Of a stretch of DNA of 64,000 nucleotides, positions 3,451-58,775 are shown piece after piece. This DNA is from an uncultured Planctomycetia bacterium. GTDB lineage: Bacteria; Omnitrophota; Gorgyraeia; 1-14-0-20-64-10. The stretch lies in NCBI GenBank assembly GCA_964373055.1, contig CAYJTM010000001.1:28688-92687 (forward strand), written 5' to 3'. A program made the position numbers and the translations under genes. Below the pieces are notes generated by a model. The model had not been told where the DNA came from. It searched no databases and worked only from the letters and a program-made list of their open reading frames with translations. Each line of letters starts with the position of its first letter. Position 1 is the first letter of the stretch.

Positions 3451-3479
3451 CGCACCGACTCCTGCCGGTAGGCCTTCCA
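3447..3479. repeat. 33-bp exact direct repeat copy B; spans stop of cytidylyltransferase gene / start of deacetylase gene
   Basis: Identical to 1673-1705; here it encodes the C-terminus ...WKAYRQESVR* of the 3447..4211 gene and the ATG of 2479..3450. Confidence 0.85.
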
Positions 3480-31108: not shown

Positions 31109-33001
31109 CTATAACCCGCGTGGAGCGTCCAAGGGGCGCTCGAGGGAACGAAGCCACACTTCAAACGTCAGCAGCAGCCACAACCTCTGGCCGGCATCCT
31201 CCCGCCCGCTGTCATGATGATGAAGGAAGGCCTGCAGCCCTTCCGGCTTGAGGTACCGAAGCACTCTCGGGCGCCCCGCCGCAAGGAGGTCGTGCAGCGG
31301 TTCCTTCCAGGGACCCCGGAACCAGGTTTCAAGCGGAACGCCAAACCCCATCTTCCTGCGGGTCAAGATCGGTTGCGGGAGGTCATCCCGGAACGCTCTC
31401 CGCAAGATCCATTTCGTGACCCCTTTTCTCCACTTGAAGCGGTCCGGCAGAGAAAAGCTCCATTCGATCAAGCGCGTATCCAGGAAAGGAGAGCGGGTTT
31501 CCAGGCCGTGGGCCATGCTGCATCGATCCAACTTCACGTTTAAATCATTCGGCAGGTAATCGTGAAAATTGAGCCGGAGGAGTTGTTGCAGCGGGGTCGC
31601 CCCCTGCTCCACGGCCACGGCCGGATCCGGCTGGCGGTATTCCGGTCGCAGGATGGAGTCCAGGTCCGGGAAGTAGCGCATCCAGGAGGAAAACCGTTCC
31701 GGTAGCCCTAAGTGGGCGGACGCGAAGAAACGGCGCAGCCGCGTCCAAGAGGATTTCTGAGAAGCCCCGGCCGGCAGCCGGTTCGCGAGATGAGAAGCGA
31801 GCAAGCGGATGGGACGCGGAATCCTCTCGGCAAAGAGGCCCGCCGAAAAGCGGTCGTAACCGGCAAAGAGCTCATCCCCGCCGTCCCCGGTGAGGGCCAC
31901 GGTCACCTGGGACCGGGCCCACTGGGACAGCAGGTAGGTGGGAACCGCGGAAGAATCTCCGAAGGGCTGGTCATGGTGCCAGACGAGTTTTTCCAGAAGA
32001 TCGAAGGACTGGGCGGTTACGGTGAACAGATGATGCCGGGTTCCAAACCGGGCCGCCGCTTGGTTCGCGAAGGAGGCCTCGTTGTAGCGCTCATCCCCTT
32101 CAAACCGGATGCTGAAGGTGCGAAGCGGTTCCCCCGTGATCAGCTTCGACAACAGAGAGACCACGATGCTCGAGTCCAACCCACCGCTTAGGAAAGCGCC
32201 CAGAGGCACGTCGGAAATGAGCCGGCGGCGGACAGACTGGGTCAAGAGGTCCCGCAGCTGGTCGACGGCTTCCTGATCGGACCGAGGCGCCGGAACGGCG
32301 CCGGGGACCGGGTTTGGGGCTGGGAGAGACCAGTAGACGCGGGGCTGGGGATCCGGATCATCGGCGCGGAAACGGAGCAAGGCGGCCGGAGGGACTTGGC
32401 GTATTTCTCGATAGCAAGTCAAGCCGGCGGGAGGGGCGCCGAAGGCCAGCAGAACTCCCAAGGCCTTCTCGTTGACCTCCCGGGGAACGTGGGGATGGGC
32501 CAAGAGGGCCTTGATCTCTGAGGCGAAGGTGACACAGCGGCCGTCGGTCCAGTAATAAAGCGGCTTCTTGCCCGTGCGATCGCGCGCCAGCAGGAGCTCT
32601 TGACGGCGGGAGTCCCACAAAGCGATGGCAAACATCCCGTCCAGGCGCGGGATCGCTTCCGCTCCCCAGACCTCGTAGGCGCGAAGGATGACCTCGGTGT
32701 CCGACCGGCTCCGGAATCGGCAGCCGCGCGCAGTCAGCTCCTCCCGGAGCTCCTTGAAATTATAGATCTCGCCGTTGAAGCAAATCCAGAGGGATCCGCT
32801 TTCATTCGACATGGGTTGGTCGGCCGCTTCCGACAGGTCGATCACCCTCAGGCGGGCGTGGGCCAGCGCGATTCCCGGTTCCGGAAGGAGATGGGCAAGC
32901 CGGTCGGGCCCCCGGTGCTTCAACCGGTCGGCCATGGAAGCGGCTTCTTGCTCCGCCACCGGCCGGCGATCCCAATGGACAATCCCCCCGAATCCGCACA
33001 T
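31109..33001 (-). CDS. asnB: Asparagine synthetase (glutamine-hydrolysing) family amidotransferase (AsnB/WbpS-like)
   Basis: 630 aa; N-terminal MCGFGGIV (Ntn Cys2), SGGLDSS PP-loop. Confidence 0.88.
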   Translation of the reverse strand: MCGFGGIVHWDRRPVAEQEAASMADRLKHRGPDRLAHLLPEPGIALAHARLRVIDLSEAADQPMSNESGSLWICFNGEIYNFKELREELTARGCRFRSRSDTEVILRAYEVWGAEAIPRLDGMFAIALWDSRRQELLLARDRTGKKPLYYWTDGRCVTFASEIKALLAHPHVPREVNEKALGVLLAFGAPPAGLTCYREIRQVPPAALLRFRADDPDPQPRVYWSLPAPNPVPGAVPAPRSDQEAVDQLRDLLTQSVRRRLISDVPLGAFLSGGLDSSIVVSLLSKLITGEPLRTFSIRFEGDERYNEASFANQAAARFGTRHHLFTVTAQSFDLLEKLVWHHDQPFGDSSAVPTYLLSQWARSQVTVALTGDGGDELFAGYDRFSAGLFAERIPRPIRLLASHLANRLPAGASQKSSWTRLRRFFASAHLGLPERFSSWMRYFPDLDSILRPEYRQPDPAVAVEQGATPLQQLLRLNFHDYLPNDLNVKLDRCSMAHGLETRSPFLDTRLIEWSFSLPDRFKWRKGVTKWILRRAFRDDLPQPILTRRKMGFGVPLETWFRGPWKEPLHDLLAAGRPRVLRYLKPEGLQAFLHHHDSGREDAGQRLWLLLTFEVWLRSLERPLDAPRGL

Positions 33002-33002
33002 G

Positions 33003-35999
33003 CTATAGCCAACCCTTCAGCCGGTAGTAGAGGATGCTGAACATTTCGTGAAGAATCCCCCGCAGCTGCTTGTACGTGATGGCGCCGTGCGGCGCGTAAT
33101 AACCGCTTTCGTGGGCCGGCGTGTGAACGACCTGAAGCCCAGGGGCGTTGCGTCGGAAGGTCAGGTCGGCCCGGCGGCCATGGTAAGGGGAGGTGACCAG
33201 CAGGATCCGTTTCCAACCCCTTTGCCGAGCGGTCTCCTTGACCTGCAGCACGTAATCCTTCGTGGAGCCGACCCGGGTCTCCTTCCGGATGGCCGCATCA
33301 GGCACGCCCAAGCTTTCCGTGAGGAGGGCCATCACATCCGCCTCGCGAAAGATCCGGGTAAAACCGGAGATCAGGAGGATCTCCGGAGCATATCCCTGTT
33401 GATAAAGCTGCACCGCCTGTTTTACCCGTTCCTCATAACCCTCCCCCGCTTGACCGGATTCACCGACTCCCCCCGCGAAGACGACAACGGCATCCGCCTT
33501 TCTCGGCGGGTCGGAGATGCGCAGCGGACTTGCCGCCCACCAGAGCAAGGGCGTCTGGAAGAACAGCAGGTAAACGCACAGAACCCCCGCCGGAAGAAGG
33601 AGCGCGCGCCACATCAACCTCTGGGAGGTCCTGCGAAGGATCCCGCTCCAGCCCTCAGATCGGGCCCGGCGCTTGGTCCGAAGCGCCTCCTCCAGGATCC
33701 CACTCATTGAATCGATCCGGTCGGGCCAAGAATGCGTGCGGGCGACCGCCTTGCGCAGCTCCTTGTAGCGCGGATCCTTTTCGTCGAGGGCCTCCCGTAC
33801 GTGGGCTTCGAACTGGCCGGCGTTTTCTCCGATGCGGACGAGAGCGCTGTTCCCTCGCGCGATCTCCAACACCTCCGGCAGGGCGGTGGAGACGACCGGT
33901 TTCCCCAGGCTCAGGTACTCGTAGAGCTTGGTGGGATACACCGTTTGGGTGTAGGGGTTGAGGCAATAGGGAATCAGGCAGACGTCGAAGTGGGCCATGT
34001 GCTGGGGGATTTTCTCATGCGGCTGAGACCCGAGCCAAAAGACATTGCGCTTTTGGCGGAGATTCTGCGCCGGTTCCTGGGACGGCCCCACCAAGACGAT
34101 CGACCAGTCCGGATGCCGGTCGGCGAGGGTGCCCAACAGCTCGAAGTCCACGTGGCGCTGCAGCGCCCCCACGTAGCCGATCCGGGGCCGCGGGATTTTG
34201 GCCAGCTCCTCCGGAATCTCCATCAACTCCGGCCGCTCAAAAAGCTCCGGGCGGACCCCGAACGGAAAGATAGAGACATTCGAGACGAATGGGCGGCAGC
34301 GCTGGGCCAGCAGCTCTCCCTGGGCGAACACCACATCGGTGCGGCGCAGCAGCGCCTGCTGGGCTTTCCGGACCTTCCGAGAAGGGCCGACCTTCTCGAA
34401 ATCGGCGATGCAGTAATAGACCACCAGCTCCGGGTCCAGCACATCCATCAGGTCCAGCGTGATGCGGGTCGGCAAGAAGGTCCAGAGGATGGGATTCTTG
34501 GAGCCTACCAGCCGCAGCCATTCGCGAATCGTGCGGTACAAAAGGAACCGGTTGATGGTGCCGGCCAGCCGGGAATACGGGAAGGGAAAGATCACCGGGG
34601 AGCAGACCCAGAGGCGCTCCCGGATTTTCCGGATGCCTCCGACGTTCCTTCTCCAGTTGGCCAGGCGGGCCCCCAGCCGGGAGAGATCCTTCAGGCCAGG
34701 CACGCGAATCCCGGTATTTTCGATGAAGAGGACCGTGTTCCCTTGATCGGCAAAGGCGGACATGACCTCCTGGTGTCCCTGCCAGTTGAAATCCCAATCA
34801 ATGGAAGAGACGCAGACAACGGTCTCGGAATTGAGCCGCGGGGCCGGCGCGTGTCCTGGCTCAGAGGTCCCGTTCTGTCCGACCCTCAAGACCGGCGCGT
34901 GCCGTTTGGACGCCGGGAGGATCTCCTCCAGCGCCTGGAGAAATTTCGGAGCGAACTGGGACAGCGCGTACTGCTCTTCGACGGAGCGCCGCCCGGCGTC
35001 CCCGAGCCGGCGCCGGAGTTCGGAACCGTCCAGCAGCCTCTCCAGGGCGGGCAACCACTCCTCCGGAGAGCGGGCCAGCAGTCCATCCGTGCCGTGGCGG
35101 ATGATTTGGTTGTTCATTCCAATGGCGGATGCGACGACAGGCACGCCGGAGGCCATGAACTGGAGTGCCTTGTAGCCGCATTTTCCTCTTGACCACTCGT
35201 CATCCCAGAGCGGATAAACCCCGATGTCGCAGTTCCGGAACTCTTCCGCCTCCGTTTGCAGGTCCCACCCCTTGCAGTCCACCTCCACGCCCGGAATCCG
35301 GACCGGCTGGCCCGCCCCCACCACCTTCAGCCGAAACCGATGGGTGCGGGCCAATTGCTGGAAGACCGGGGTCAGACTCAGCAGATACTTCGCCGTGCTG
35401 GGGGATCCGATCCAACCCACCGTGAGGAGAGACCCGCCGGGATTGTTGGATCTTGGAACGTAGCGATCCGTGTCCACCGGCGTGGGGAGGCAAACCACAT
35501 CGGGGTTCAACTTCGCCGCGTATTCGGCCAGAAATGAATTGCCGGCAATGACGCGCCGGCTCAAGGCGATCAGGTGCCGGACGCTGTGGGTGTTTTCCAG
35601 TTTTCCCACGAGGCCTCGGTTACGCCGGTGAGGCAAAAAGATGGCGTCGTCGAAATCGTAGATCACGGGCGCTCCATGCCGCCGGAGTTCCCCCTCTAGA
35701 AGTGCCATGCCGGGCAGGAGCCCCAGCGGAAACAGCTCCCGGTGGATGAAGACCAGGTCGTATCGGGTGCCGCGCAAGACCTCCAACCTTTTTCGAGCTC
35801 CCTTCAGCAGCCAACCGGTCTTGCTCCCCGCCTTGCCGGGCGCGTAGAGCTCCTCCAAGGATTCCGAAGGGAAGAAGGGATGGAACTGGATTTCATAACC
35901 GGCTTCGCGCAGGGCCGGTTCGTAGGCCAGCACCCGGTACCGGGTGGAAGCCACCTCGAGGGGGTGTGTCGCCAGGAAGAGGAGGCGGACGTTATTCAT
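33003..35999 (-). CDS. Multidomain protein: two tandem GT4/GT1-type (GT-B) glycosyltransferase domains + TM segment + C-terminal DUF218 (SanA/YdcF-like) domain
   Basis: Start MNNVRLLFLATHPLE (35999). Two GT-B C-domains (EWSRGKCGYKALQFMASGVPVV; TVYPTKLYEYLSLGKPVV), TM LLPAGVLCVYLLFF, then ADAVVVFAGGV...ILLISGF typical of DUF218. Confidence 0.75.
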   Translation of the reverse strand: MNNVRLLFLATHPLEVASTRYRVLAYEPALREAGYEIQFHPFFPSESLEELYAPGKAGSKTGWLLKGARKRLEVLRGTRYDLVFIHRELFPLGLLPGMALLEGELRRHGAPVIYDFDDAIFLPHRRNRGLVGKLENTHSVRHLIALSRRVIAGNSFLAEYAAKLNPDVVCLPTPVDTDRYVPRSNNPGGSLLTVGWIGSPSTAKYLLSLTPVFQQLARTHRFRLKVVGAGQPVRIPGVEVDCKGWDLQTEAEEFRNCDIGVYPLWDDEWSRGKCGYKALQFMASGVPVVASAIGMNNQIIRHGTDGLLARSPEEWLPALERLLDGSELRRRLGDAGRRSVEEQYALSQFAPKFLQALEEILPASKRHAPVLRVGQNGTSEPGHAPAPRLNSETVVCVSSIDWDFNWQGHQEVMSAFADQGNTVLFIENTGIRVPGLKDLSRLGARLANWRRNVGGIRKIRERLWVCSPVIFPFPYSRLAGTINRFLLYRTIREWLRLVGSKNPILWTFLPTRITLDLMDVLDPELVVYYCIADFEKVGPSRKVRKAQQALLRRTDVVFAQGELLAQRCRPFVSNVSIFPFGVRPELFERPELMEIPEELAKIPRPRIGYVGALQRHVDFELLGTLADRHPDWSIVLVGPSQEPAQNLRQKRNVFWLGSQPHEKIPQHMAHFDVCLIPYCLNPYTQTVYPTKLYEYLSLGKPVVSTALPEVLEIARGNSALVRIGENAGQFEAHVREALDEKDPRYKELRKAVARTHSWPDRIDSMSGILEEALRTKRRARSEGWSGILRRTSQRLMWRALLLPAGVLCVYLLFFQTPLLWWAASPLRISDPPRKADAVVVFAGGVGESGQAGEGYEERVKQAVQLYQQGYAPEILLISGFTRIFREADVMALLTESLGVPDAAIRKETRVGSTKDYVLQVKETARQRGWKRILLVTSPYHGRRADLTFRRNAPGLQVVHTPAHESGYYAPHGAITYKQLRGILHEMFSILYYRLKGWL

Positions 36000-36651
36000 C
36001 GGATTCCAGCGGCCGGCCCAACAGCCGTTTCCCCGCCCTCTTAAGCTCATGGAGGATTCTTGGGCCCGGCATCTGCATCCGCGCCCGGAGGGTTTGGGGG
36101 ACGGAGAACCGGCCTAGACCCGCCTGCTGAACGCTCATGAGCCGGCCGGCCGCGTCCCGGAGGGCAACGCCCTGCGCGACATCCCAAACGGTCCAGTGGT
36201 CCCCCAGGCGCACAAAGGAGAACACCCGGTCTGGAGAGCCGTCGCGGCCCCGGATCACCCTCCAGAAGGAGGGGATGCCCGCGTAGGTCGCCAGCGTCGT
36301 GAAGACGTCGGCCGCTTGATCCTTGGTTCCGTAGCCGCGGATGATGATGTGGGTGATGTGATCATCCACAATCGGCCATCCGGGAGGCACCGGGCGGATC
36401 TGCTCACGGGTCCACCTGAACAACGTCTCCGCCTTCGCCTCTTCCGGCACCACGCCCCGGGTGACCTCGGCGGCCAGGCGCCGGTACTCGTAGTCACGCA
36501 CCAGAAAGCCCATCCCTTTGACGCCGACCGGGATCTGCTTCTCGGTAACCTTGAAATTGACGCCCTGCCGGGTGGTGGCCGGCCAAGCCAGCAGGCCCAG
36601 CAGCAAGAGGCCCGCCAGGGACCCAAAGAAAACTTTTTTCGGAAAACGCAT
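35992..36651 (-). CDS. Secreted/lipoprotein-like hypothetical protein (possible degenerate transglutaminase-like core)
   Basis: 219 aa; N-terminal signal peptide MRFPKKVFFGSLAGLLLLGLLA; segment GYGTKDQAADVFTTLATYAGIPS resembles the G-x-C...GIPAR core, but Cys is replaced by Thr. Confidence 0.5.
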   Translation of the reverse strand: MRFPKKVFFGSLAGLLLLGLLAWPATTRQGVNFKVTEKQIPVGVKGMGFLVRDYEYRRLAAEVTRGVVPEEAKAETLFRWTREQIRPVPPGWPIVDDHITHIIIRGYGTKDQAADVFTTLATYAGIPSFWRVIRGRDGSPDRVFSFVRLGDHWTVWDVAQGVALRDAAGRLMSVQQAGLGRFSVPQTLRARMQMPGPRILHELKRAGKRLLGRPLESDE

Positions 36652-36665
36652 GAGGATGGCCCTAT

Positions 36666-38423
36666 TTAACGCTGGCTGGCCGCGTCGCCACCGCGACGCG
36701 GCATTTCCTCGGCAGCAAGGAGGGTGCCGCCTCGGTCAGAGACGGCCGGGACGGTCGGTTTACTTTGGAAGTAGGAACAGACCCGCTGTTGGTCATCCAG
36801 CGAATGGATCTCCGACCAGCCGTGATCGATCTCCATGCCGAACATGGGGACCTGCTGCTCAAGCAGGTCCAGCAGGAGATCGGTGAAATCGGCCTTTTCC
36901 ACCGTGGGGGATTCGTGATAGGGGCGGTCCTGGGTCCGGCCCAGGGCTTGGCGCCAGGCGGCCTGGAGTTTCGCGAAGCCCTCCGCCCGGAGATAGGCCA
37001 AGCCGATGAACTCATGCCCCGCCTTCTCGCGCGGGACCCGTTTACCGATGGAGCGGATCCTCTTGAAGCCCGAAAGCCGCAGGTCCCTGGAGCCCTCGGC
37101 GGCGGAAGGGGTCTCCTCCACCCAGACGAGATCCAACGGCTTGTCCCGCGGGGGGAGGGTCCGGTACGCGCGGTCCATCACCAGCGTGATCTCATGGGGG
37201 CTGCGCAGAAGCCGCTCGAGGATTTGCGGATCGAACAGGATATCCGAATAAAGGATCAGCACGTCCCGGTTCGACGGGTTCTGCACCTGCAGAATGGATT
37301 GGGCGCACCCGCAGCGCTCGTAATCAGGGTTGTAGAGCACGGTGACCGACTCCGCCTGTATCTTGTCATGCAGATGCCCACCCACCACGGTGACCTCCTG
37401 GACCCCGGCCGAGCGCAAAAGGTCGACCTGCCTCTCCAGCAGCGTCCTGCCGGCGATGTCCACCATGCAGAGCGGCTTGTCCTTGAGCAGGTCCAGAAGG
37501 TCCGCCTGGAAGCGGTGGTCCCGCGCGGCCGGGATGACCGCCCTGACCTTGCCCCGGTCCAGGAACCTCTTTTCCTCTTCCTTCATCCGCGTGAGCCCCT
37601 GCAGCTCGAATACCTCCTGTAAGGAAGCGATCTCCTTCTCCACCGCCGCCGTCGACCCGCTCGCGGCGATCGTCTGGAACACGCGGTCCAGCGCGCGGAT
37701 GGAGGCCCGCAGGCCCTGGTTGGCGTAGATCACCATCGAGAAGCCTTCCCGCTCCAGTTCCGAGGCCGTCACCTTGAAGTAGGTGGTCGGGATCGCCACC
37801 AGCGGGGCCCGGCGCCGCCACCTTCGGGCGAAGGCAAAGATCTCATCAGGGGTGGAGGCCTTCGAATGGATGACGATGCCGTCCGCGCCCGCCTCGGCGT
37901 ACGCCTGGGCCCGCCGGAGCGCCTCCTCCAGCCCAAAGCCGGCAATCAGCGCCTCCACCCTGGCAAAGACCATAAAATCAGCGCCGCGCTGGGCCTCTTT
38001 GGCCGCCCGGATTTTTCCGGAAAACTCTTCCAGTGAAACCAATTCCTGCCGGCCCTGCACCAAGCTGTTGAGCTTCGGAAAACGCTGGTCCTCGATGACG
38101 ACGGCGGCTAGGCCCACCGCCTCATAACGCCGCACCATGTGCATCACATTGGAGGCGTTCCCGTAGCCGGTATCACAGTCGCAGACGACCGGAAGCTGGG
38201 TCGCGTCGTTCATCGCCCGGGCGGCTTCCAAGTTCTCGGTCATTGTCAGGAGGTTGGCGTCGGGCAGCCCGTACGCGGTGGAGACCTCCAACCCGCTCGC
38301 CCAAACCCCATCGAACCGGTGCCGCTCAACCAAGCGGGCTCCCAGCCCGTTGTGCGCCCCCATGATCCGGACGATCCCGCCTGATGCCAGCCGTTCCCGA
38401 AGGACCGATGACTTATCCGTCAT
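36666..38423 (-). CDS. Fusion: N-terminal phosphoenolpyruvate mutase-like (ICL/PEPM superfamily) + C-terminal MobA/LicC-like nucleotidyltransferase
   Basis: 585 aa; IMGAHNGLGA, DCDTGYG, EDQRFPKLNS (PEPM E-D-K-x5-N-S signature with K->Q), then KVRAVIPAARDHRF...VVGGHL nucleotidyltransferase domain. Architecture resembles the Ppm-nucleotidyltransferase fusions of phosphonate-glycan pathways as recalled. Confidence 0.7.
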   Translation of the reverse strand: MTDKSSVLRERLASGGIVRIMGAHNGLGARLVERHRFDGVWASGLEVSTAYGLPDANLLTMTENLEAARAMNDATQLPVVCDCDTGYGNASNVMHMVRRYEAVGLAAVVIEDQRFPKLNSLVQGRQELVSLEEFSGKIRAAKEAQRGADFMVFARVEALIAGFGLEEALRRAQAYAEAGADGIVIHSKASTPDEIFAFARRWRRRAPLVAIPTTYFKVTASELEREGFSMVIYANQGLRASIRALDRVFQTIAASGSTAAVEKEIASLQEVFELQGLTRMKEEEKRFLDRGKVRAVIPAARDHRFQADLLDLLKDKPLCMVDIAGRTLLERQVDLLRSAGVQEVTVVGGHLHDKIQAESVTVLYNPDYERCGCAQSILQVQNPSNRDVLILYSDILFDPQILERLLRSPHEITLVMDRAYRTLPPRDKPLDLVWVEETPSAAEGSRDLRLSGFKRIRSIGKRVPREKAGHEFIGLAYLRAEGFAKLQAAWRQALGRTQDRPYHESPTVEKADFTDLLLDLLEQQVPMFGMEIDHGWSEIHSLDDQQRVCSYFQSKPTVPAVSDRGGTLLAAEEMPRRGGDAASQR

Positions 38424-39726
38424 TAGCAGTTCCCTCCAAAAGTCGGTGATGCATCAGCAGCGCGCAAAACCCGAGCAGCAGCAGGCCATAAAACGGTAGG
38501 GACCACCAGAGGTACATCAGGGAATGCTGTTGGCCCCAGACCGGATGCGGCGGCAGCTTGTTCAGGGCGCCCCCGGGAATCACCATGCCAGTCAGGCCGT
38601 AGGCCAGACCGAACAGGCCGACGTGCACGGCCGAGAAAGAGTCCCGGCGCTGGATCAGCAGCAGGCCCACCGCCACGAACCCGGGCAGCACGAGGATCGA
38701 GTAATGGACCCGGGAAGCTTGGGAGATGACCAGGATCATCACGAGGGAGAGGGTCGCCTCGAGCAGGTGCAGCGGCCAGCGGTCTTCCCGCTCCCGCCGG
38801 CTCCACCGGCCGCGCAGCAGGAAGAGGAGCCACCCGACCACCGCAAGCCCCTTCAAGGCCTTCGCAAGTCCAAGCGCCAGTGCCGGATTGGGCACCGGCA
38901 TGTAGGTTCCGCGCCGGATGTATTCGAAAAAGGAGGTTCGAGGCTCCGGCCGGGCGAACCAGCGATTGATGGTGCCGCTCAAGGTTTGCATCTCCACGCT
39001 GGCTTCCGGCCGGTTCCCCTCATGCTGGTGGTCCAACATCAGGGCGGTCGCACGGCCGAAAAACCCGGAGGAGAGAATCTTCGGGCCGAACGAGGCGAAA
39101 ACGGCCCCCAGCACCACGGCTGCCCCGAGCAGTGAACCCAGCAGGACCTTCCATTCCCGCTTGGCTCCGAAATGGACCAGCAGCAGCGCCGGAAGGTACT
39201 TCAGGTTCGCGGCCGCCATCAGCAGGCCCCCGCACAGCAGATCCCTGTGCCGCCGGAACGCCCGCAAGGCGAAGCAAATCAGCAGGAACTCGATCCCTTC
39301 CACCTTGTGCTGCGCGAGCGTCTCCAGAAAAGGTTGGGAGTTGACCACCAGCGCCGCCGTGACCCCGTACGCAATCCACGGCGGACGGGAGGGGCCGGTC
39401 CAGACGGCCTGTGTCAGGCAAAGAATGGCGGCCGGGTAAAACAAGAACTGGAGGAAATAGAAGATGAAAGCGCAGCGGCGCTGACCGCCGGCCAGCGCGT
39501 CGACCCACAGCAGCAGCGCGTAATAGAATGGCGGGTGGAGGTGCCACGAGGTGCCGCTTGGCGCGGGGGAGTCCAGGGAAACTTTCCATTCCATCGCTTC
39601 CTGATAGACCCGGTTGAAATCGCCGCTGGCGGCCCCTCGAAAAACGCTGTACTGCGTCACCGAGAAAGCCAGGTGCAGCGCCGTGTAAGCGAGCAATAAG
39701 GCCCAAAGGATCTTCTTAAGCGACAT
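38413..39726 (-). CDS. Polytopic membrane protein, DUF2029/GT87-like GT-C glycosyltransferase candidate
   Basis: ~437 aa, >10 TM helices; start MSLKKILWALLL (39726). Confidence 0.55.
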   Translation of the reverse strand: MSLKKILWALLLAYTALHLAFSVTQYSVFRGAASGDFNRVYQEAMEWKVSLDSPAPSGTSWHLHPPFYYALLLWVDALAGGQRRCAFIFYFLQFLFYPAAILCLTQAVWTGPSRPPWIAYGVTAALVVNSQPFLETLAQHKVEGIEFLLICFALRAFRRHRDLLCGGLLMAAANLKYLPALLLVHFGAKREWKVLLGSLLGAAVVLGAVFASFGPKILSSGFFGRATALMLDHQHEGNRPEASVEMQTLSGTINRWFARPEPRTSFFEYIRRGTYMPVPNPALALGLAKALKGLAVVGWLLFLLRGRWSRREREDRWPLHLLEATLSLVMILVISQASRVHYSILVLPGFVAVGLLLIQRRDSFSAVHVGLFGLAYGLTGMVIPGGALNKLPPHPVWGQQHSLMYLWWSLPFYGLLLLGFCALLMHHRLLEGTANDG

Positions 39727-40414
39727 CGCCTTCCCCCTTTGACGCGACGACCGCCACATAGGTGAACAGGTCTCCGGGTCCGAAGTCCGACCGAAGCAGT
39801 GTGAGCCGGTTGCGTCCCATCATCTCCCGGATCCACCGGAAAGAATGGATGCGGGAGAACTCGTCTGGATGCAGCTTGAGCGGTTGCCGGCGGAAACGGT
39901 TCGCAATCCCCGTGAACAGCCCCAGCGCGATCACCGACAGGCCGAAATCCGGGGGCCAGAAAAGGACCATGCGCCCCCCGTCTTTCAACACCCGCTTGAA
40001 CTCCGATAGGATTGAGCCGATCTGTTCCTCCGTGAAGTGCTCCATCACGCCGAAATTGAAGATGCCGTCCATTGAGCCCGAAGCGTACGGCAGCCTAAAA
40101 ATGTCCCCGCAAGCGTAATTGCGCCTTAAATTCATCGGTTGACGCTGATGCAGTTTCATCGCCACCGGCGACAAATCCAAGAAGTGGAACCGGGACCGCG
40201 AGAGCGGGATCCGCTGGTCCGAGCCACCGCTGCCGCAACCGGCATGCAGGTAATTCCGCTCAGGTCCGTCCGGAAAATGCCGGTTTAAGACCCGGGCCGC
40301 CGATCGGGAGATGATCTGGTCCCGGTAAAATTGTGCAATCACCTGATAAGGGTTTTGTCGGCGCGGTTCGGCTGCCCGGGTCCAGTAAAGATCCCACTCC
40401 ATGGTCTGGGTCAT
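39716..40414 (-). CDS. Class I SAM-dependent methyltransferase
   Basis: Start MTQTMEW (40414, ATGA overlap); YLHAGCGSGGSD motif I. The upstream 242 aa of the ORF track overlap the next gene and are discarded. Confidence 0.72.
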   Translation of the reverse strand: MTQTMEWDLYWTRAAEPRRQNPYQVIAQFYRDQIISRSAARVLNRHFPDGPERNYLHAGCGSGGSDQRIPLSRSRFHFLDLSPVAMKLHQRQPMNLRRNYACGDIFRLPYASGSMDGIFNFGVMEHFTEEQIGSILSEFKRVLKDGGRMVLFWPPDFGLSVIALGLFTGIANRFRRQPLKLHPDEFSRIHSFRWIREMMGRNRLTLLRSDFGPGDLFTYVAVVASKGEGDVA

Positions 40415-41283
40415 GGCTTCCTGAAGATCGCAAACATCTCGCCGGGAAGGGCCAGCGTGACCTTCAAGCCCGAGATGGCCGGATGTGCCGTCAGCCGCCG
40501 GGCGGCCGAGCCGATGGCCGGATAACGGCTCAGCGATTTCGCCACCGATCCCAACGTGGTCACGTGAGGGTAGCGACCGACCCAGACCTCCTGGAATCCG
40601 GCCTGAACGAAGGCGCAGCGCAGCGAGTGGTGGCTGAAGACCTGAAGATGTTGCCCCTGGATGTACCACCACTGTCTGCCGAATAAACGCGCCGGCAAGC
40701 TTGCGATGTCGCCGGTCCACAGGCAAACGAGTCCCCCGCCGCGGAGCAGCCCGTGCATTCTGCGGATCTCTTCGACCGGTTGCTCGAAATGTTCTATGAC
40801 GCCCCAGAGCGTCAGCAGATCGTAGGGTTCGCTTGGGCGGAAATCGGCCAGCTTGGACCGGTGGACCGTGAGCCCTCGCGAGCGGGCGATGTCGGCCGCC
40901 CAGCCGGAAAGCTCCAGTCCTTCCGTTTGGAAATGGCGGCGGGCCTCTGACAGGAAGTCTCCCGTCGCGCAGCCGATGTCCAGCAGCCGCCCCGATGGCC
41001 GGTAGCCGGTGATCCTGCGCAGCACGCGGCGGGCGCTCACCAGCCGCTCCGGTTGGCGCTTCAGGTAAGCCGGGTCCTCCACCTCCTCGTACTGTTGCCA
41101 GAGCTGGGCCGGCCGCGGCGAGGCATAGCCATGCCGACAATCCCGGCAGAAAACCACGCGGTAGGTCTTCATGTGATCCGGCGTGAAGTCATAGCCGAAC
41201 CGAGGCAGCTGGGTCTCCAGCGTGTCGGGGTAAAGCTGCGCGTGGCCATCCTGGCCGCATAGGGGACAAGGAAAATGGATCAT
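40411..41283 (-). CDS. Zinc-ribbon SAM-dependent methyltransferase (class I)
   Basis: 290 aa; CPLCG...CRDC ribbon, LLDIGCATGDF motif I. Confidence 0.8.
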   Translation of the reverse strand: MIHFPCPLCGQDGHAQLYPDTLETQLPRFGYDFTPDHMKTYRVVFCRDCRHGYASPRPAQLWQQYEEVEDPAYLKRQPERLVSARRVLRRITGYRPSGRLLDIGCATGDFLSEARRHFQTEGLELSGWAADIARSRGLTVHRSKLADFRPSEPYDLLTLWGVIEHFEQPVEEIRRMHGLLRGGGLVCLWTGDIASLPARLFGRQWWYIQGQHLQVFSHHSLRCAFVQAGFQEVWVGRYPHVTTLGSVAKSLSRYPAIGSAARRLTAHPAISGLKVTLALPGEMFAIFRKP

Positions 41284-42011
41284 GAGGGATGGGACCCGTT
41301 TCGGGCCATCCGCTGAAGACTCAGTCTACAGAGCGTCTTGACCGCTCGCAGGATCTCGGCCCGGGAGATCTTGGATTTCCCCTGGTGGCGGGAGCTGATG
41401 ACGATGGGGACCTCGCCGACCGTGTGCCCTTTCTTCCGGATGTGGAACAGCATCTCGATCAAGAAGGCGTAACCTTCCGCCTGGATCTCATCCAGATTGA
41501 TCTCCTTGAGGAGCGCCACCGGGTATAGGCGAAACCCGCCGGTGCAGTCGTACGGAATCCGCAGGAAGGAGGTCGTCAGCCCGTGAGCAATATGGGTCAA
41601 GATCCTCCTGGGGAGGCTCCAGCCCGCCAGCCCGCCTCCGGGCAGGTAGCGGGAACCCACCACCACGTCGGCGAAGTTCGAGCCCGCGATCAGCTGTTTC
41701 AGGTACCGGGGGGAATGCGCGAAATCCGCGTCCATCGTGAGGACCCAACGGTAACCGCGTTGCATGGCGTACCGGAAGCCGGCCTTGTGGGCCCCGCCTA
41801 TCCCTAACTTCCCCGCCCGGTGAAGAACCGTCACCGGCGCCTCCGATTTCAAAGCCTCCGCCACTTGGCCGGTGCCATCCGGCGAATGGTCGTCAATGAC
41901 CAGGATATCCAGCGGCAGTTTCTCCTGAACAATCTCCCGGATCAGGCGAGGCAGATTCTCCGCTTCATTGTACGTGGGGATCACCACCAGCGTTTCGGCC
42001 CAAGGAGCCAT
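41280..42011 (-). CDS. GT2 polyprenyl-phosphate glycosyltransferase (GtrB/CsbB/DPM1/ArnC-like)
   Basis: Start MAPWAETLVVIPTYNE (42011); LVIDDHSPDGT, DADF, RGYAF...KGHTVGEVPI typical of Dpm1-like GT2. Confidence 0.82.
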   Translation of the reverse strand: MAPWAETLVVIPTYNEAENLPRLIREIVQEKLPLDILVIDDHSPDGTGQVAEALKSEAPVTVLHRAGKLGIGGAHKAGFRYAMQRGYRWVLTMDADFAHSPRYLKQLIAGSNFADVVVGSRYLPGGGLAGWSLPRRILTHIAHGLTTSFLRIPYDCTGGFRLYPVALLKEINLDEIQAEGYAFLIEMLFHIRKKGHTVGEVPIVISSRHQGKSKISRAEILRAVKTLCRLSLQRMARNGSHPS

Positions 42012-43315
42012 CAAACAACCCTGGGCTCGGGGAACGCAACAACAAACCGGGTGCCGCCGGCGCGGAGCACTTTTTCCCGCTCGAGAAAACCCTCCAGGAA
42101 ATGCCATGGAAGGACCAGCAAAAGGTCCGGTTTCGCGCGGCGCATCTCTTCCTCCGAACAGATGGGAATGGAAGTGCCGGGGGTGCGCCTGCCCCATTTC
42201 GCCGGATTTCGGTCGGCGATCGCGGCCAGGTCTTCCGGCCCGAAACCGCAGTACTGCAGCAGGACATTGCCTTTGGTGGAGGCCCCGTAGCCATAGACCG
42301 ACTTCCCTTCCCGCGCGGCCTGCCTCACCAGCTCCTGAGTGGCCGACCGGATCCGGACCGCGTTGGCTTGGAAACGAGCGAAGCGTTCAGGGCTGTACAC
42401 GGCGGCCCGTTCCTCATCCGCCAACGCCCGATCGATCCTGCGCTGAGCTTCCGGATCCGGCCCCGGCTGGCCGGAGGTCTTTCGAAACGAGCAGCGCATG
42501 CTCCCGCCGTTGGAGGAATTGAAGGCCACATCCTCCAAACGGAAACCGCAGGTCTGGGCGAGACGGTTCATGCAGTTCAAGCTGTAATAGCCCAGGTGCT
42601 CATGGCAGATGGCGTCGAACGCGTTGGTCTCCAGCATGGACCCCCAGTAGTGCAGCTCCACGACCCACAGCCCATCTTCCGCGAGGATCCGGTGGATCTG
42701 GCGGCAGAACCCGGCGGGGTCCTCAATGTCGTAGAACATCGCGACGGTGGTCACGGCCCTGGCCTTCCGGCCCGGGCACTCCTTTTGAAGGTCCTGGGCG
42801 CCGGTTTGGCTGCTGAAGAAGCTCCGGAGGACGCGGACACCCCGCCGCTCGGCGACCGCCGCGGCATCGGAGGGCTCGAACCCAAACCGGACCAGGCCCG
42901 GTTCACGATAGGCCAGCAACGTGGTCCCGTCATTGGCGCCGATGTCCACCACGAGGTCGCCGGCTTTCAGATCGAGCCGGGACTCGATCTCCGCGGACAG
43001 CTGTTCCAGGTGCCGGCGCATGGTTTCATTGAGGCCGGAGCGGTAGCCGTAATCTTGGAACATCAGATCCGGAGGCACAGAATGCCGAAGCTGAATGAAA
43101 CCGCATCCTTTCGAAGAAGGATCGCAGCAGACGACTTCCAGGGGGACTGCAGCCCTCAATTGGTTCTGGGGTCTGCCGTCATCGAACAGGCCGGCCAAGA
43201 ACTGGGAGCCAAGGTCAATGACCGGGCGCAGCAGGCGGCCGCCGCAGACGCGGCAGGCCTGAATCACCCGCACCCGTTTTTCCCAGCCCTGGAGGGACTG
43301 ATCAACGGTGGGCAT
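42011..43315 (-). CDS. Zinc-ribbon SAM-dependent C-methyltransferase (TylCIII/NovU-like NDP-hexose C-methyltransferase family)
   Basis: 434 aa; CRVCGG...CCDPSSKGCG ribbon, VVDIGANDGT motif I, C-terminal C-methyltransferase domain (GYGASTKGNVLLQYCG). Confidence 0.78.
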   Translation of the reverse strand: MPTVDQSLQGWEKRVRVIQACRVCGGRLLRPVIDLGSQFLAGLFDDGRPQNQLRAAVPLEVVCCDPSSKGCGFIQLRHSVPPDLMFQDYGYRSGLNETMRRHLEQLSAEIESRLDLKAGDLVVDIGANDGTTLLAYREPGLVRFGFEPSDAAAVAERRGVRVLRSFFSSQTGAQDLQKECPGRKARAVTTVAMFYDIEDPAGFCRQIHRILAEDGLWVVELHYWGSMLETNAFDAICHEHLGYYSLNCMNRLAQTCGFRLEDVAFNSSNGGSMRCSFRKTSGQPGPDPEAQRRIDRALADEERAAVYSPERFARFQANAVRIRSATQELVRQAAREGKSVYGYGASTKGNVLLQYCGFGPEDLAAIADRNPAKWGRRTPGTSIPICSEEEMRRAKPDLLLVLPWHFLEGFLEREKVLRAGGTRFVVAFPEPRVV

Positions 43316-43652
43316 CGGATCTTCCCATCAGCCGCATCAAAAAGCTGGACTCCCAGACCGAGCGCCAATCCTCCGGCCCGAAGAGGCCGACCCCAGCGGC
43401 CACCAACCCCACGCCCCGCAGCGGAATGCCCCACGCGGCAACCTCCCGATGGAGCAGGAACAGAGCGAGCGCATTGGAAAGGATGGCCGCAGTAAGAAAA
43501 GCGGACAGGGCCCGCGGAGAAAGCCCCCACCCGAGGAGTTTACCGAGGAGGTCCTCGCTCTTCCGAAAGAACCCTTGCGCGAAGCGAGAACACGAGGAGA
43601 TCAGAAGGCTGCCCGCGAGGTAATCGCGAGTCGCGCGATTTTCCTCTCCCAT
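43302..43652 (-). CDS. Small membrane protein (~116 aa), possible GtrA-family
   Basis: Internal Met MGEENR at 43652 right after the upstream stop, AGGA 13 nt upstream; 3 hydrophobic helices. Alternatively non-coding. Confidence 0.35.
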   Translation of the reverse strand: MGEENRATRDYLAGSLLISSCSRFAQGFFRKSEDLLGKLLGWGLSPRALSAFLTAAILSNALALFLLHREVAAWGIPLRGVGLVAAGVGLFGPEDWRSVWESSFLMRLMGRSDAHR

Positions 43653-43653
43653 C

Positions 43654-44928
43654 TTACTTGATCCTTTTGTTCTCAAAATAATCATCTGAAAAGACCGCGA
43701 ACGGCTTGGAAATGACGATTCCGGAGTGTTCCTGACCGTTGATCTTAAACCAGATGCGCGCCCCCTGGTGCAACGGGCGTGCCCAGACGGATGAAACGAG
43801 CTTCCCCTCCTCCATCGTGATTTGAGCGGGCAGAAGCACTTCCGCGATGGGATAGGGGCCCATGTTGTAGTTCCTGTGCACGCCCGCAGCCCGCACCTGA
43901 CCCAGTGGACGCCTGAGTTTCCACTCCAGGGAGTCCTGAAACTCCTGCATCGCGCGCGCGCTCGGTTCGTCCAGCAGGACGGTGGCGACCATGAACGCCT
44001 GAAACCCAGAGCTGATATAGACGAGACCCTCGCCGATCCTGATCTTCGGTGCATCTTGGAGCTCAAAGCTCACGTCAGCTGCCCTTCCCGCTATCTTGGG
44101 GGTTGTTTTCAGTTGAATCTTCAAACACTCGGGGCTCACCAGGGTCGCCTCGCCGATCCGCTCTTCGTTGAGCCACACGGTGGTCCCATTGAGAAAGTGC
44201 TTTCCATAGAGGACTAAATCGACGGTATCTCCGAGAACAATCCGATCCGGCGCCACGGAAGTGATCTCGGGTGCCGGCGCCACGGTGACGGCCTCTTCCC
44301 AGGTGGCGGATTGGCCTCCGGCGTTGGTCACGGTCAACCGTTGTTGGCCCAGCGGCAGCGGAGGGCCTTTGCTGAAATCCGCGGAGAGCTTCCGAGTGGG
44401 GGCTGAGCTGTGCCTGTCCGCTGGAATTTCACGCTCTCCGAGGCGGATGGTGCACGAGCGAGAAAAGAAGTTTCCGGAGATATCCAGACGCGCGCCCTCC
44501 CCCGTGCTGTAGAGGATCTTCGGCTTGACCTCCGAGATCTTCGGTTCCCAAACGACTTCCAGAGGATCCGGGACGGTCGCGGTCCGGCCGTGACTGTCCC
44601 GCACCCACAATGCATAGACCCCGGGCTCAACCTCCTCGTTGATCTCGACCCCAAGGACCGAATCCTCCCAATAGACGCCCTTCCGCGAGATATGCTCGCC
44701 CAATCGGACGGTGGTGGGTGGATCAAAACCGGTTCCTCTCACAACCACAAATTGGCGGGGCCCCGCGACGATCCGCTTGGGCTCCACGTCGGCGATCTCG
44801 AGGGCCCGGTAGTGGGAAACGCCCACGGCGTAGGCAACCACACCCCCCATGCTTAAAAGAAAAAGTGAAACCAGCAGATCTAAAAGATTGAGCTTCCCGA
44901 AAAGGCGGCCCCGGCTATCCAGCCACAC
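43654..44928 (-). CDS. Membrane-anchored protein with three IPT/TIG-like Ig-fold repeats (function unknown)
   Basis: 424 aa; N-terminal TM LLDLLVSLFLLSMGGVVAYAV; repeated PKRIVAGPRQFVVVRGTGF / PKILYSTGEGARLDISGNFF / ITSVAPDRIVLGDTVDLVLYGKHF blocks. Confidence 0.55.
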   Translation of the reverse strand: MWLDSRGRLFGKLNLLDLLVSLFLLSMGGVVAYAVGVSHYRALEIADVEPKRIVAGPRQFVVVRGTGFDPPTTVRLGEHISRKGVYWEDSVLGVEINEEVEPGVYALWVRDSHGRTATVPDPLEVVWEPKISEVKPKILYSTGEGARLDISGNFFSRSCTIRLGEREIPADRHSSAPTRKLSADFSKGPPLPLGQQRLTVTNAGGQSATWEEAVTVAPAPEITSVAPDRIVLGDTVDLVLYGKHFLNGTTVWLNEERIGEATLVSPECLKIQLKTTPKIAGRAADVSFELQDAPKIRIGEGLVYISSGFQAFMVATVLLDEPSARAMQEFQDSLEWKLRRPLGQVRAAGVHRNYNMGPYPIAEVLLPAQITMEEGKLVSSVWARPLHQGARIWFKINGQEHSGIVISKPFAVFSDDYFENKRIK

Positions 44929-46300
44929 GGTTGGGCGCCTCCCCGGAAAACCCTTGCTTGCCGCGCGCGAAGATCCAGAAGCCGGCGGCGGAAAAGAGTA
45001 GAACCATAGGGGTTGTCATGTCCCGCATACGAACCAGGATCCCCACATTGCCGATGGACAGAGCGCCCATCAGGACCCAGAGGAGGAGAGGCGCGGCAAG
45101 GAAGGCGCAGTTCCAGGTGTTCCGGCGAATCCCCGCGGCAACGCCGATCAGCGCGAAGGGCAGCAGGAAATACCAGAGCACCATCTGGGGGATCATGAAA
45201 AAGGGGCTTCCGCTGACGGTGCGGCTCGGCAAGGGCTGAAAGAAATAGTGCGCCAACGCGGTGGGAGTTCTCCTAATCACCACCCCCACCAGGTCGGCTC
45301 TCCGGGTTTCGCTTTCCAGGTTATAGAACGGATCGGGAAGATACCGGTAGGTCATGCTGTCCGTCTGATATCCCATATGCCGGTAGACGGCGTAACCGAT
45401 CGCGCCCTGAATCCTCTTCGTTGGGTTGAAAACCATCAGGACAATGACCGCAAGCAGCAGAGCCGCGTACCACCGTTTCCGGATGCACCATTCCAACCCC
45501 CCTACGCCGAGCAAACAAACCATTAAAGCCAAGATCCACTCCTCTCTCCCGAGACTCTGCGCGACCCAGAAGATCGCCCCGAAGGCGCCTAAAATGGCGA
45601 TCCGGCGCTTGAGGCCAGGAGCGGTCCGAAGCGCGGCGAAAAGCAGCAGCAACAGCGTGATCAGAAGGAACAGCAACGGATCCTTCAGATTGCTCGCGGA
45701 CCAGACGAGAAGCGTGGGAAAGCAGGCGGCTAACCCACCCGCCCATCGGGCGATGCTGGATTGAAAACAGACCTTGGCGAGGTGGAAGAGGGCGATCACC
45801 TGCAGGGCGCCGAACCAGCAGTTCAGCCACTTCACGGAGAAGGGGCTGAAGCCGAAGGTATAGTAAAACCAGCCGACGACGAAGAGGTAGCCGTGGTGGC
45901 CGTACCTCGTGATGCGTTGAAGCACCGTGGGCGCCCGATTCCCGCTCGCGTAATGCGCCAGGGAGTACCCCCGTCCGGAGTAGTAGTCGCTGTCCCCCAG
46001 CCGAAGGAAAGCCCGGGACTGGTCGCTCATGCCGAGATCCCAAACGTGGGGAGGCCCCCATCGCGTAGGCAGGCGCCCCTCCACCTTCCATGAAATCGCA
46101 TCGAAGCAAACAGAGAGGCCCATGCGCAGGAAGAAGGCGACCAGGAACAGCCGGACCAGGAACACGCGGTCCCCCGGCGCGGTGAAGCGGCGGAGCGCCG
46201 CGCAGACGCTCGCCGCCAGAAACAGGACAAACACCCCCCCCGGCGAGAACGCCGCGGCGCCGCCCAGAAACGCCCCCAGCAACAACGGTTTTTTACTCAT
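44915..46300 (-). CDS. Polytopic membrane protein, putative GT-C glycosyltransferase (ArnT/PMT-like)
   Basis: Start MSKKPLLLGAFLGG (46300); ~461 aa with >10 TM helices. Confidence 0.55.
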   Translation of the reverse strand: MSKKPLLLGAFLGGAAAFSPGGVFVLFLAASVCAALRRFTAPGDRVFLVRLFLVAFFLRMGLSVCFDAISWKVEGRLPTRWGPPHVWDLGMSDQSRAFLRLGDSDYYSGRGYSLAHYASGNRAPTVLQRITRYGHHGYLFVVGWFYYTFGFSPFSVKWLNCWFGALQVIALFHLAKVCFQSSIARWAGGLAACFPTLLVWSASNLKDPLLFLLITLLLLLFAALRTAPGLKRRIAILGAFGAIFWVAQSLGREEWILALMVCLLGVGGLEWCIRKRWYAALLLAVIVLMVFNPTKRIQGAIGYAVYRHMGYQTDSMTYRYLPDPFYNLESETRRADLVGVVIRRTPTALAHYFFQPLPSRTVSGSPFFMIPQMVLWYFLLPFALIGVAAGIRRNTWNCAFLAAPLLLWVLMGALSIGNVGILVRMRDMTTPMVLLFSAAGFWIFARGKQGFSGEAPNRVAG

Positions 46301-48884: not shown

Positions 48885-48891
48885 CGCGGGG

Positions 48892-49647: not shown

Positions 49648-49649
49648 GG

Positions 49650-50426: not shown

Positions 50427-50431
50427 AGTTT

Positions 50432-56257: not shown

Positions 56258-56314
56258 CCCCGCTCCAGTAATGATTTCGGTGGCTGCGATAGTAGGCGAC
56301 CGTCCGCAGGCCGC

Positions 56315-57076: not shown

Positions 57077-57137
57077 CCGGACGTGGCCGGTGTTCTGCCA
57101 GTCCTGATGCCACTTCGAATCCGGTTTGGTCGTGGCT

Positions 57138-58703: not shown

Positions 58704-58775
58704 TTGGCCAGTTTAGCACGGACGATCCCTATCGTCAATCGCTGCAGCCGGTTACCTGCTCAACGAGGAGACCGG

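Follow-up and report, generated by a model that had tools for sequence, protein, structure and literature searches.

The window analysed here, a stretch of 64,000 nucleotides from contig CAYJTM010000001.1 of an uncultured Planctomycetia bacterium, contains a gene that joins a phosphoenolpyruvate (PEP) mutase (Ppm, also called PepM) to a nucleotidyltransferase (NTase) in a single polypeptide chain (36666..38423, minus strand). The gene is an intact open reading frame (ORF) of 585 aa with an ATG start, the span including the stop codon, and encodes the Pfam families PF13714 and PF12804. The PEP mutase domain covers aa 1-290 (37554..38423), matches the Pfam PEP_mutase profile over nearly its full length (aa 12-252, E 1.4e-56), and has the PEP phosphomutase of Streptomyces platensis (5UNC, E 2e-107) as its closest solved relative. 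The NTase domain follows at aa 291-560 (36744..37553), based on the MobA-like family NTP_transf_3 (PF12804, aa 315-408, E 7e-13), an AlphaFold model, and Foldseek. The C-terminal tail (aa 561-585, 36669..36743) is predicted to be disordered (pLDDT < 50) and is shared only by P0001 in the family alignment. The hallmark motifs of the mutase are GAHNGL (aa 22-27), DTGYG (aa 84-88), and EDQRFPKLNS (aa 111-120, 38064..38093), the latter, as read from the DNA, with Q113 in place of the lysine of the "EDK" signature. A first-pass annotation, which had been made from the sequence alone, had described the same hallmarks with the same lysine-to-glutamine change and a MobA/LicC-like NTase at the C-terminus; all of the motifs could be located, and both the PF12804 match and the PntC/LicC-type fold described below agree with it.

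A ribosome-binding site (GGAGG, 38433..38437) is located 9 nt ahead of the ATG at 38423, and the start of the fusion gene overlaps the stop of an upstream GT87-like gene by 11 nt (38413-38423), as it does in the related locus L003. The fusion gene thus belongs to a translationally coupled operon. The window consists mostly of minus-strand genes forming one very large glycan-biosynthesis locus, which comprises many GT2/GT4/GT87/PMT_2-like transferases, methyltransferases, a B12-radical-SAM enzyme, AsnB, a sulfotransferase, and an ABC exporter. The same two-domain protein is found in at least 120 database clusters (52-92% identity), and the named relatives of its clade are Omnitrophota metagenome-assembled genomes (MAGs) and one Planctomycetia MAG. 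The architecture as such is already known and is the commonest one for Ppm: 59.5% of the Ppm enzymes are fused to another domain, and PF12804 is the top partner with 33% (Rice et al. 2019, PMC6697681). Of the earlier suggestion of a notable fusion architecture in a glycan context, the context stands, since the fusion lies within a glycan locus, but the architecture is not special. The EDQ motif and the clade to which the gene belongs, which is embedded in glycan loci and lacks phosphonopyruvate decarboxylase (Ppd), are variants of known Ppm-NTase fusions. Judged by its sequence, the gene is robustly predicted to encode a functional bifunctional Ppm-NTase of a known family that supplies a nucleoside monophosphate (NMP)-activated phosphonate to the glycan locus.

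A PEP mutase domain with a variant signature

Every catalytic residue that has been characterised in the mussel PEPM is present in the fusion except K116 (mussel numbering). In the alignment to 1M1B the Mg2+ ligands (D55, D82, D84, and E111; mussel D58/D85/D87/E114), the oxyanion site (S43-G44-L45; mussel S46-G47-L48), and the lid residues K117, N119, and S120 together with R155 and H186 (mussel K120/N122/S123, R159, and H190) are all kept, and these residues are invariant across the family alignment. The Streptomyces platensis enzyme and Mytilus edulis PEPM (1M1B, E 1e-73) share the Mg2+ ligands, the Lys, Asn, and Ser of the lid, the Arg, and the His with the fusion but have the EDK motif and are stand-alone mutases. 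Other assignments within the isocitrate lyase (ICL) superfamily were rejected. The phosphonopyruvate hydrolase model (PPH/PalA, TIGR02321) reached 290 bits against a required 374, and the loop of the fusion ends with LNS and not with DTS when aligned to 2DUA, the PalA loop being EDKxFPKD(T/S)S. The methylisocitrate lyase model (prpB) reached 183 of 354 bits, and the fusion contains FPKLNS instead of KRCGH; with the isocitrate and methylisocitrate lyases, whose catalytic loop is K(K/R)CGH (methylisocitrate lyase structures IEDQVGAKRCGH), it shares the Gln alone. CPEP mutase scored 122 of 420 bits. The PEP mutase equivalog TIGR02320 is passed, at 322.2 bits versus a cut-off of 319.55, which is a marginal pass.

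The codon of Q113 is CAG (38085-38087), a single A to C transversion away from AAG. Lysine is found at this position in 120 of the 125 aligned family members, and glutamine is confined to the query and the four sequences closest to it (78-92% identity). In all five EDQ sequences it is accompanied by two other changes of this lid loop, F121L and P123Q. The relationships of the loci were taken from a neighbour-joining tree without bootstrap, in which the EDQ pair of the window and L001 forms a terminal twig that is sister to the EDK-bearing L002. Phylogenetic placement had been proposed as a check in the first-pass annotation, and the fusion falls among the PepMs linked to Ppd, nested among clades that have Ppd directly downstream. 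Compared to a relative at 92% identity, omega is 0.13 in the mutase and 0.14 in the NTase domain (dS 0.31); by this sequence measure the EDQ variant is maintained under purifying selection.

It could be imagined that the lineage has altered or lost its mutase activity together with the lysine, and that the domain performs another reaction of the ICL superfamily, as had been suggested before, or just serves as a non-catalytic scaffold for the NTase. The lysine is present in 120 of the 120 other family members and belongs to the motif that defines PepM. Glutamine is the state of the lyase branch at that one position, because methylisocitrate lyases read IEDQ...KRCGH. Moreover, the two further lid-loop changes stand alongside it, and the clearance of just 2.6 bits over the PEP mutase cut-off tells against the assignment as mutase. 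However, the remainder of the loop is of PepM type and retains the PepM-specific FPKxNS instead of the lyase KRCGH, none of the metal and substrate ligands has been lost, omega is low for the mutase domain, the hydrolase and methylisocitrate lyase models are far under their cut-offs, and the EDK sister L002 has the very same operon context. In addition, two variants, one PepM whose EDQ motif is identical and one with EDN, are found next to Ppd. Nesting among EDK relatives, retention of the other catalytic residues, purifying selection, and the EDQ and EDN variants beside Ppd make it unlikely that the exchange indicates a changed activity, and we regard the earlier suggestion as highly improbable. 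From the sequences we infer that the "EDK" lysine is dispensable or easily compensated, and that glutamine is a lineage-specific tolerated substitution and not the mark of an altered reaction. A literature search on the structural role of K116 in mussel PEPM did not find anything relevant.

The variants beside Ppd come from a homologue search with the mutase domain, which resulted in 8526 matches. Among the best 150 representatives of these, 110 have ED-K..PK.NS, 19 have EDN, four have EDQ, and a few have EDA/G/S/H, so that about 20% of these 150 diverse PepM-like representatives depart from EDKX5NS. P0162 is an unrelated stand-alone PepM with an identical EDQRFPKLNS, whose gene cluster is typical of phosphonates and contains a split Ppd-like thiamine pyrophosphate (TPP) enzyme, ATP-grasp ligases, and a GNAT protein. 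P0145 is an EDN fusion with a Ppd-like gene directly downstream and an iron-containing alcohol dehydrogenase (Fe-ADH). The TPP genes beside both match validated Ppd seeds (E 1e-30 to 1e-41). P0131, an EDN...PKRCS fusion, has a split TPP enzyme directly downstream according to its Pfam annotation.

EDKX5NS is the motif by which PepM is recognised in published inventories, including that of Rice et al. (2019, PMC6697681). The fusion does not match this signature, having retained the NS but not the Lys, and its gene would therefore be thrown out by such a filter. EDKX5NS is too strict as a PepM-defining feature. Filtering with it may under-count phosphonate producers, especially in metagenomes. 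The fusion resembles the entries of the Rice et al. inventory (PMC6697681) in the two Pfam domains, their order, and the glycan-locus context, and differs in the motif and in the absence of Ppd beside its clade; the enzymes assayed in that study were PntCs unfused to Ppm. The EDQ variant and the Ppd-less clade matter for genome mining and for the search for alternative PepM coupling steps.

Besides EDQ, there is a sizeable subfamily of PepM-like NTase fusions with EDNxFPKRCS (P0131/L101 1039-2709, P0133, P0134, P0157, and others), in which not only the "EDK" Lys but also the Asn of the catalytic loop is altered (N to C, resulting in a lyase-like K-R-C). Either PepM is far more motif-tolerant than assumed, or these proteins catalyse a distinct reaction that feeds a Ppd-like enzyme.

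The nucleotidyltransferase domain and the absence of phosphonopyruvate decarboxylase

The AlphaFold model of the NTase domain has a pLDDT of 84.3 and a pTM of 0.83. Its best Foldseek match is PntC (6PD2, E 4e-14, TM 0.63, rmsd 3.2 A), with which UDP-glucose pyrophosphorylases essentially tie, and LicC is close at rank 13. At the sequence level the similarity to all three is remote (E about 0.01-0.1). All family-invariant residues are found in the domain. Its signature is PAARDHRF (family consensus PAA[G/R]DHRF) and not AAGxGxR, and falls one residue short of the canonical loop length. The best structural match is thus Tde-PntC, the phosphonate-specific cytidylyltransferase of Treponema denticola (6PD1/6PD2), but it shares only 16-18% identity with the fusion, which in turn contains about 60 extra residues including a disordered loop. 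E104, which binds the amine of 2-aminoethylphosphonate (AEP) in Tde-PntC, aligns to Y392, a tyrosine that is invariant in the family, and E196 falls outside the sequence alignment. The GT-A-like NTase fold is, based on the model, secure, while substrate specificity cannot be carried over from PntC. Fom1 of fosfomycin biosynthesis is likewise a bifunctional PepM/NTase, whose NTase activates a phosphonate made downstream of phosphonopyruvate (PnPy) (PMC6697681). It differs in the opposite domain order, cytidylyltransferase-PepM, in the NTase family (PF01467), and in acting on 2-hydroxyethylphosphonate (HEP) in a Ppd-dependent pathway.

In the 64 kb, Ppd and AEP transaminase (AEPT) gave no match in six-frame tblastn searches with NCBIfam-validated Ppd, split-Ppd, and AEPT-like seeds, the Ppd seeds being from related loci and having passed TIGR03297 with 360-374 bits (cut-off 312.5). 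Pfam matches to TPP_enzyme, Aminotran_5 (class V), class-I/II aminotransferases, and HMGL-like domains were also absent from the long ORFs and the longest antisense ORFs of the window, and the long antisense ORFs did not match any Pfam family at all. The earlier statement that neither Ppd nor AEPT is recognisable in the 64 kb is borne out by both types of search. In total, 94 related loci were gathered, 82 of which have usable flanks. Ppd, either fused or split, is present in 58 of the 82, and within 400 bp of the fusion gene in 53. Apart from a few distant outliers, the Ppd-less loci with adequate flanks are the window, L001-L006, L014, L015, L019, L020, and L055, which form a single clade in the tree (61-100% identity to the query). 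In eight distinct lineages of this clade, none of Ppd, AEPT, and Fe-ADH is encoded in flanks of 5-36 kb. The absence of Ppd is a feature of the clade and, as far as the sequences tell, the otherwise adjacent Ppd has been lost in a monophyletic group. As the entire clade including its EDK members lacks Ppd, the loss would predate the lysine-to-glutamine change and be independent of it.

Four loci considered as additional Ppd-less outliers (L048, L049, L057, and L065) carry split two-subunit Ppd genes and were rejected as such. The Ppd genes beside the fusions appear in three formats, namely as single chain of about 370 aa, as split genes of about 165 + 185 aa, and fused to AEPT. The split format, which is like sulfopyruvate decarboxylase ComDE, was found in these four loci and in L095 and L101, the other formats in L007-L009 and L012; the Ppd-AEPT fusion of L012 comprises 762 aa. 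In L052 (9968-14043) a Ppm-NTase without Ppd within 10 kb is directly followed by an STT3/AglB-type oligosaccharyltransferase (794 aa). In L076 (9998-20975) a Ppd-less Ppm-NTase is followed by a B12-radical-SAM enzyme, a class-V aminotransferase, AsnB, a 2-hydroxyacid dehydrogenase of the subfamily found in the window, and a HAD protein.

Because the clade has lost the otherwise adjacent Ppd, the PnPy made by the mutase domain is most likely not decarboxylated here but would be trapped as a C3 phosphonate. Taking all variants of the trapping step together, we give such a non-decarboxylative route an even chance. The alternative is a classical pathway with unlinked genes, in which the fusion would work as it does in its Ppd-linked relatives, the genes for Ppd and either AEPT or a phosphonoacetaldehyde reductase would be in another part of the genome, and AEP or HEP would be the substrate of the NTase. 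Between the Ppd-less and the Ppd-linked clades the NTase domain hardly differs, linkage is prone to rearrangement given that the sister clade L016/L017 has Ppd and Fe-ADH moved 1-2 kb upstream, only 64 kb of the genome are visible, and there is no convincing local trap. Against this, Ppd is located at most 400 bp from the fusion in 53 of the 58 Ppd-positive loci, and the eight lineages of the clade have none of the three genes in their flanks. Long-term unlinking of a three-step pathway would be unusual, and an earlier pepM cluster lacking Ppd revealed a new coupling enzyme, the branch point to phosphonoalanine. We consider unlinked decarboxylation somewhat unlikely. A Ppd-less clade under purifying selection in a conserved glycan operon points either to an unrecognised trapping step or to an unusual unlinked pathway.

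Transamination of PnPy to phosphonoalanine by a DegT-family aminotransferase had also been put forward. There are two DegT genes in the window (11474-12793 and 23764-25059), and in the P0001 contig a GNAT-DegT fusion is found two genes from the Ppm-NTase. However, the best-scoring models for both window proteins are those of nucleotide-sugar aminotransferases (PseC, ArnB, DesI), they are encoded 12 and 24 kb away from the fusion gene, and they are not conserved with it in the syntenic loci, DegT being absent within 10 kb in L003 and L005. DegT is also present near the Ppd-positive fusion L018. The known PnPy transaminases belong to class I/II (PF00155; Li & Horsman 2022), of which there is none in the window. 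It is hard to imagine that a DegT protein is the trapping enzyme, and we have dropped this proposal.

Candidate steps for trapping phosphonopyruvate

The equilibrium of PEP mutase favours PEP more than 500-fold, and a coupling enzyme is therefore needed. Accepted classes of PnPy coupling enzymes are Ppd, aminotransferases, 2-hydroxyacid dehydrogenases, and homocitrate-synthase-like enzymes. The two 2-hydroxyacid dehydrogenases noticed at first are indeed present as 2-Hacid_dh genes at 13400-14629 and at 47191-48459. The latter, named 2HADH_b and annotated at 47191..48129 (minus strand), is a PGDH-like protein according to Pfam, has its best NCBIfam match to PGDH (209 bits, below the cut-off) and its best PDB matches to PGDHs, and lies 9 kb from the fusion gene in the same strand-continuous locus. 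It is the candidate for reducing PnPy to phosphonolactate, as does VlpB, a PF02826 PnPy reductase. A gene like 2HADH_b was found in eight of ten Ppd-less but none of 27 Ppd-positive loci with flanks of at least 12 kb (Fisher p about 1e-6, a value inflated by shared ancestry because the loci are not phylogenetically independent), and in L014 it is located immediately upstream of the fusion gene. The window agrees with the rule given for the VlpB branch, a PepM neighbourhood with a PF02826 dehydrogenase and without Ppd (Li & Horsman 2022). In the valinophos route, VlpA (PepM) and VlpB produce phosphonolactate, which is converted to 2,3-dihydroxypropylphosphonic acid (DHPPA) via VlpCDE. The window resembles this system in having a PepM without Ppd and a PGDH-like 2-Hacid_dh_C gene in the neighbourhood. 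It differs in its context, a glycan locus and not a small-molecule cluster, in the absence of PGK-like and Fe-ADH genes, and in the dehydrogenase subfamily.

2HADH_b is the last gene of a cassette (47191..60115, minus strand) which according to Pfam has the order SIS - TAL/FSA - B12-radical-SAM - methyltransferase - GT4 - HpcH aldolase - x - HAD - x - SDR - SDR - CTP_transf_3 - 2HADH_b, and which is located directly upstream of the fusion in L014 (697-9988). The cassette has the appearance of a pathway towards a CMP-activated sugar acid that uses a class II pyruvate aldolase (HpcH/HpaI) rather than NeuB/KdsA. Many uncultivated bacteria share it, the dehydrogenase alone having more than 120 clusters with 58% identity or above, and we did not find a published description of it.

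Several observations weigh against a trap by reduction and, more broadly, against a local C3 route. The same cassette is found without Ppm within 10 kb in L102-L107, which represent two independent lineages (2HADH_b orthologues with 53-61% identity), and in these loci the dehydrogenase gene overlaps the preceding CTP_transf_3 gene by 4 nt. When tested for being specific to PepM loci, the dehydrogenase thus failed. The dehydrogenases of the window, L003, L005, L014, and L076 form a subfamily without the PGDH "RS" phosphate-binding motif, and the clade member L020 does not have 2HADH_b in the 10 kb around its fusion. Its co-occurrence with the loss of Ppd may merely reflect the type of glycan locus that the clade inhabits. 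PGK and Fe-ADH did not match anywhere in the window in tblastn searches with seeds from L085; a GAPDH-like gene was not found by Pfam, no seed search having been made for GAPDH. Four positions only separate Ppd-less from Ppd-linked fusions, and just one of these is in the NTase domain, in its nucleotide-binding loop. As judged from sequence, the pocket therefore does not look adapted to a carboxylated C3 substrate, in agreement with AEP or HEP as unchanged substrate and an unlinked Ppd. R301 (PAARDH versus PAAGDH) was rejected as a marker of Ppd loss because the Ppd-positive L018 has R too. The window covers 25-36 kb on either side of the fusion, so that 64 kb of the genome are visible. A LicD-type, CDP-alcohol-type, or sulfatase-fold transferase was not recognised in the window by Pfam, including a permissive scan of the ORFs without hits; for want of a recognisable phosphonyl transferase, all versions of the model have a gap. 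2HADH_b had to be downgraded as a dedicated VlpB orthologue, given the lack of the "RS" motif and the existence of the cassette without Ppm. Of the VlpB-type reduction suggested in the first-pass annotation the co-occurrence with Ppd-less fusions holds, but the gene belongs to a separate cassette. Reduction of PnPy by the resident PGDH-like dehydrogenase seems unlikely to us.

A related arrangement is found in L085 (7843-13462), a distant Ppd-less relative, which has the gene order Fe-ADH - Ppm-NTase - PGK homologue - PGDH-type dehydrogenase - second NTase. This dehydrogenase is a true PGDH-type protein and different from the window subfamily. A valinophos-like core, leading from phosphonolactate to dihydroxypropylphosphonate, is joined here to nucleotidyltransferases, which hints at a glycerol-phosphate-like phosphonate that would be CMP-activated for use in a polymer or lipid.

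The fusion might also be its own trap. The NTase domain would then act directly on PnPy to form CMP-phosphonopyruvate, the reaction would be pulled by hydrolysis of the released pyrophosphate (PPi), and a separate coupling enzyme would not be needed. The NTase domain is the sole invariant partner of Ppm across the clade, and the fusion moves as one gene among glycosyltransferases. The pull of PPi hydrolysis is more than enough to overcome the equilibrium of Ppm, which is unfavourable by a factor of roughly 500. CofC/FbiD of F420 biosynthesis are MobA-clan NTases that nucleotidylate PEP or 2-phospholactate directly with GTP, which is a chemical analogue of activating PnPy or phosphonolactate. 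They differ from the fusion in using a phosphate-ester substrate and GTP, in not being fused to a mutase, and in being absent from the top fold matches. On the other side, we know of no precedent for CMP-phosphonopyruvate. The Ppd-linked relatives keep the same NTase pocket, though there Ppd presumably consumes the free PnPy, and the family-wide tyrosine at the position of PntC E104 does not give any clue to a carboxylate site. Direct nucleotidylation as a self-contained trap is thus quite unlikely in our view. Another local enzyme such as the HpcH aldolase could supply the trap, which we consider very doubtful.

For the C3 route preferred here, the following pathway is proposed. The N-terminal domain would isomerise PEP to PnPy, which would be trapped by nucleotidylation or reduction. 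The C-terminal PntC/LicC-fold domain would convert the phosphonate and an NTP, probably CTP, to the NMP-phosphonate donor, and the surrounding glycosyltransferase locus would use this donor to decorate a cell-surface glycan. This Ppd-independent phosphonoglycan pathway, by which a CMP-activated C3 phosphonate, either phosphonopyruvate or phosphonolactate, would be put onto a surface glycan in this clade of uncultivated bacteria, has in our opinion slightly less than an even chance. If it exists, its head group would be a phosphonate new to glycans, and the PEP mutase equilibrium would possibly be pulled in a new way. To our knowledge, a C3 phosphonate head group on glycans has not been reported.

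The surrounding glycan locus

The neighbours of the fusion gene, all on the minus strand, are conserved in the Ppd-less clade. The syntenic module comprises 2HADH - GT2 - PMT_2-like - DUF4330/TIG - C-methyltransferase - GT2 - methyltransferase - GT87 - fusion - transglutaminase-like - GT4-GT4-DUF218 - AsnB. The upstream neighbour is the GT87-like membrane glycosyltransferase identified by Pfam (38413..39759), which adjoins the fusion in L001-L004 and L019 (54-71% identity). It is preceded by two S-adenosylmethionine-dependent methyltransferase genes (39716..41283), namely MTase_d, with orthologues of 61-75% identity in L002, L003, and L005, and a second gene at 40411-41283. The block GT2 - C-methyltransferase - DUF4330/TIG - PMT_2-like - GT2 (41280..47342) links the fusion to the cassette and has the same order in L003, L005, L019, and L055. 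Downstream of the fusion there are a small membrane-anchored transglutaminase-like protein (35992..36651, weak PF01841; orthologues in L001-L006 with 41-59% identity), a GT4-GT4-DUF218 triple-domain protein of 1015 aa (33003..36050, by Pfam; 42-60% identity in L001-L006, L020, and L055), and an AsnB-type amidotransferase (31109..33001, by Pfam; 58-78% identity in the same loci and 30% in L076). The position of the fusion gene varies: in L020 it is flanked by GT9 genes, in L014 it follows the cassette, and elsewhere it follows GT87. In the transglutaminase-like protein a Lys seems, by eye, to stand where the catalytic Cys would be expected (GYGTKDQAADVF...GIP), so that this protein is possibly a pseudo-enzyme or has a different function.

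Further genes of the window are found at larger distance. Between AsnB and the sulfotransferase there is a pyruvate-kinase barrel-only protein of 344 aa (30062-31096, minus strand) without C-terminal regulatory domain and below the pyruvate kinase equivalog cut-offs, which was not found in the syntenic loci. A protein handling PEP or pyruvate is suggestive in a locus that also encodes a PEP mutase and two NeuB proteins. Two tandem paralogous ORFs of about 780 aa each (6860-11481, minus strand) do not match any Pfam family even at E <= 1, and both are about 50% identical to one 748-aa protein beside AsnB in L003, L004, and L055. The window also contains four CMP-sugar-type cytidylyltransferases (3447-4211, 16650-18350, 22393-23256, and 48117-48884), one of them fused to a GT2, and the two NeuB genes (5329-6165 and 14371-15069). 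Together, these imply several different nonulosonic/ulosonic acids in one glycan system.

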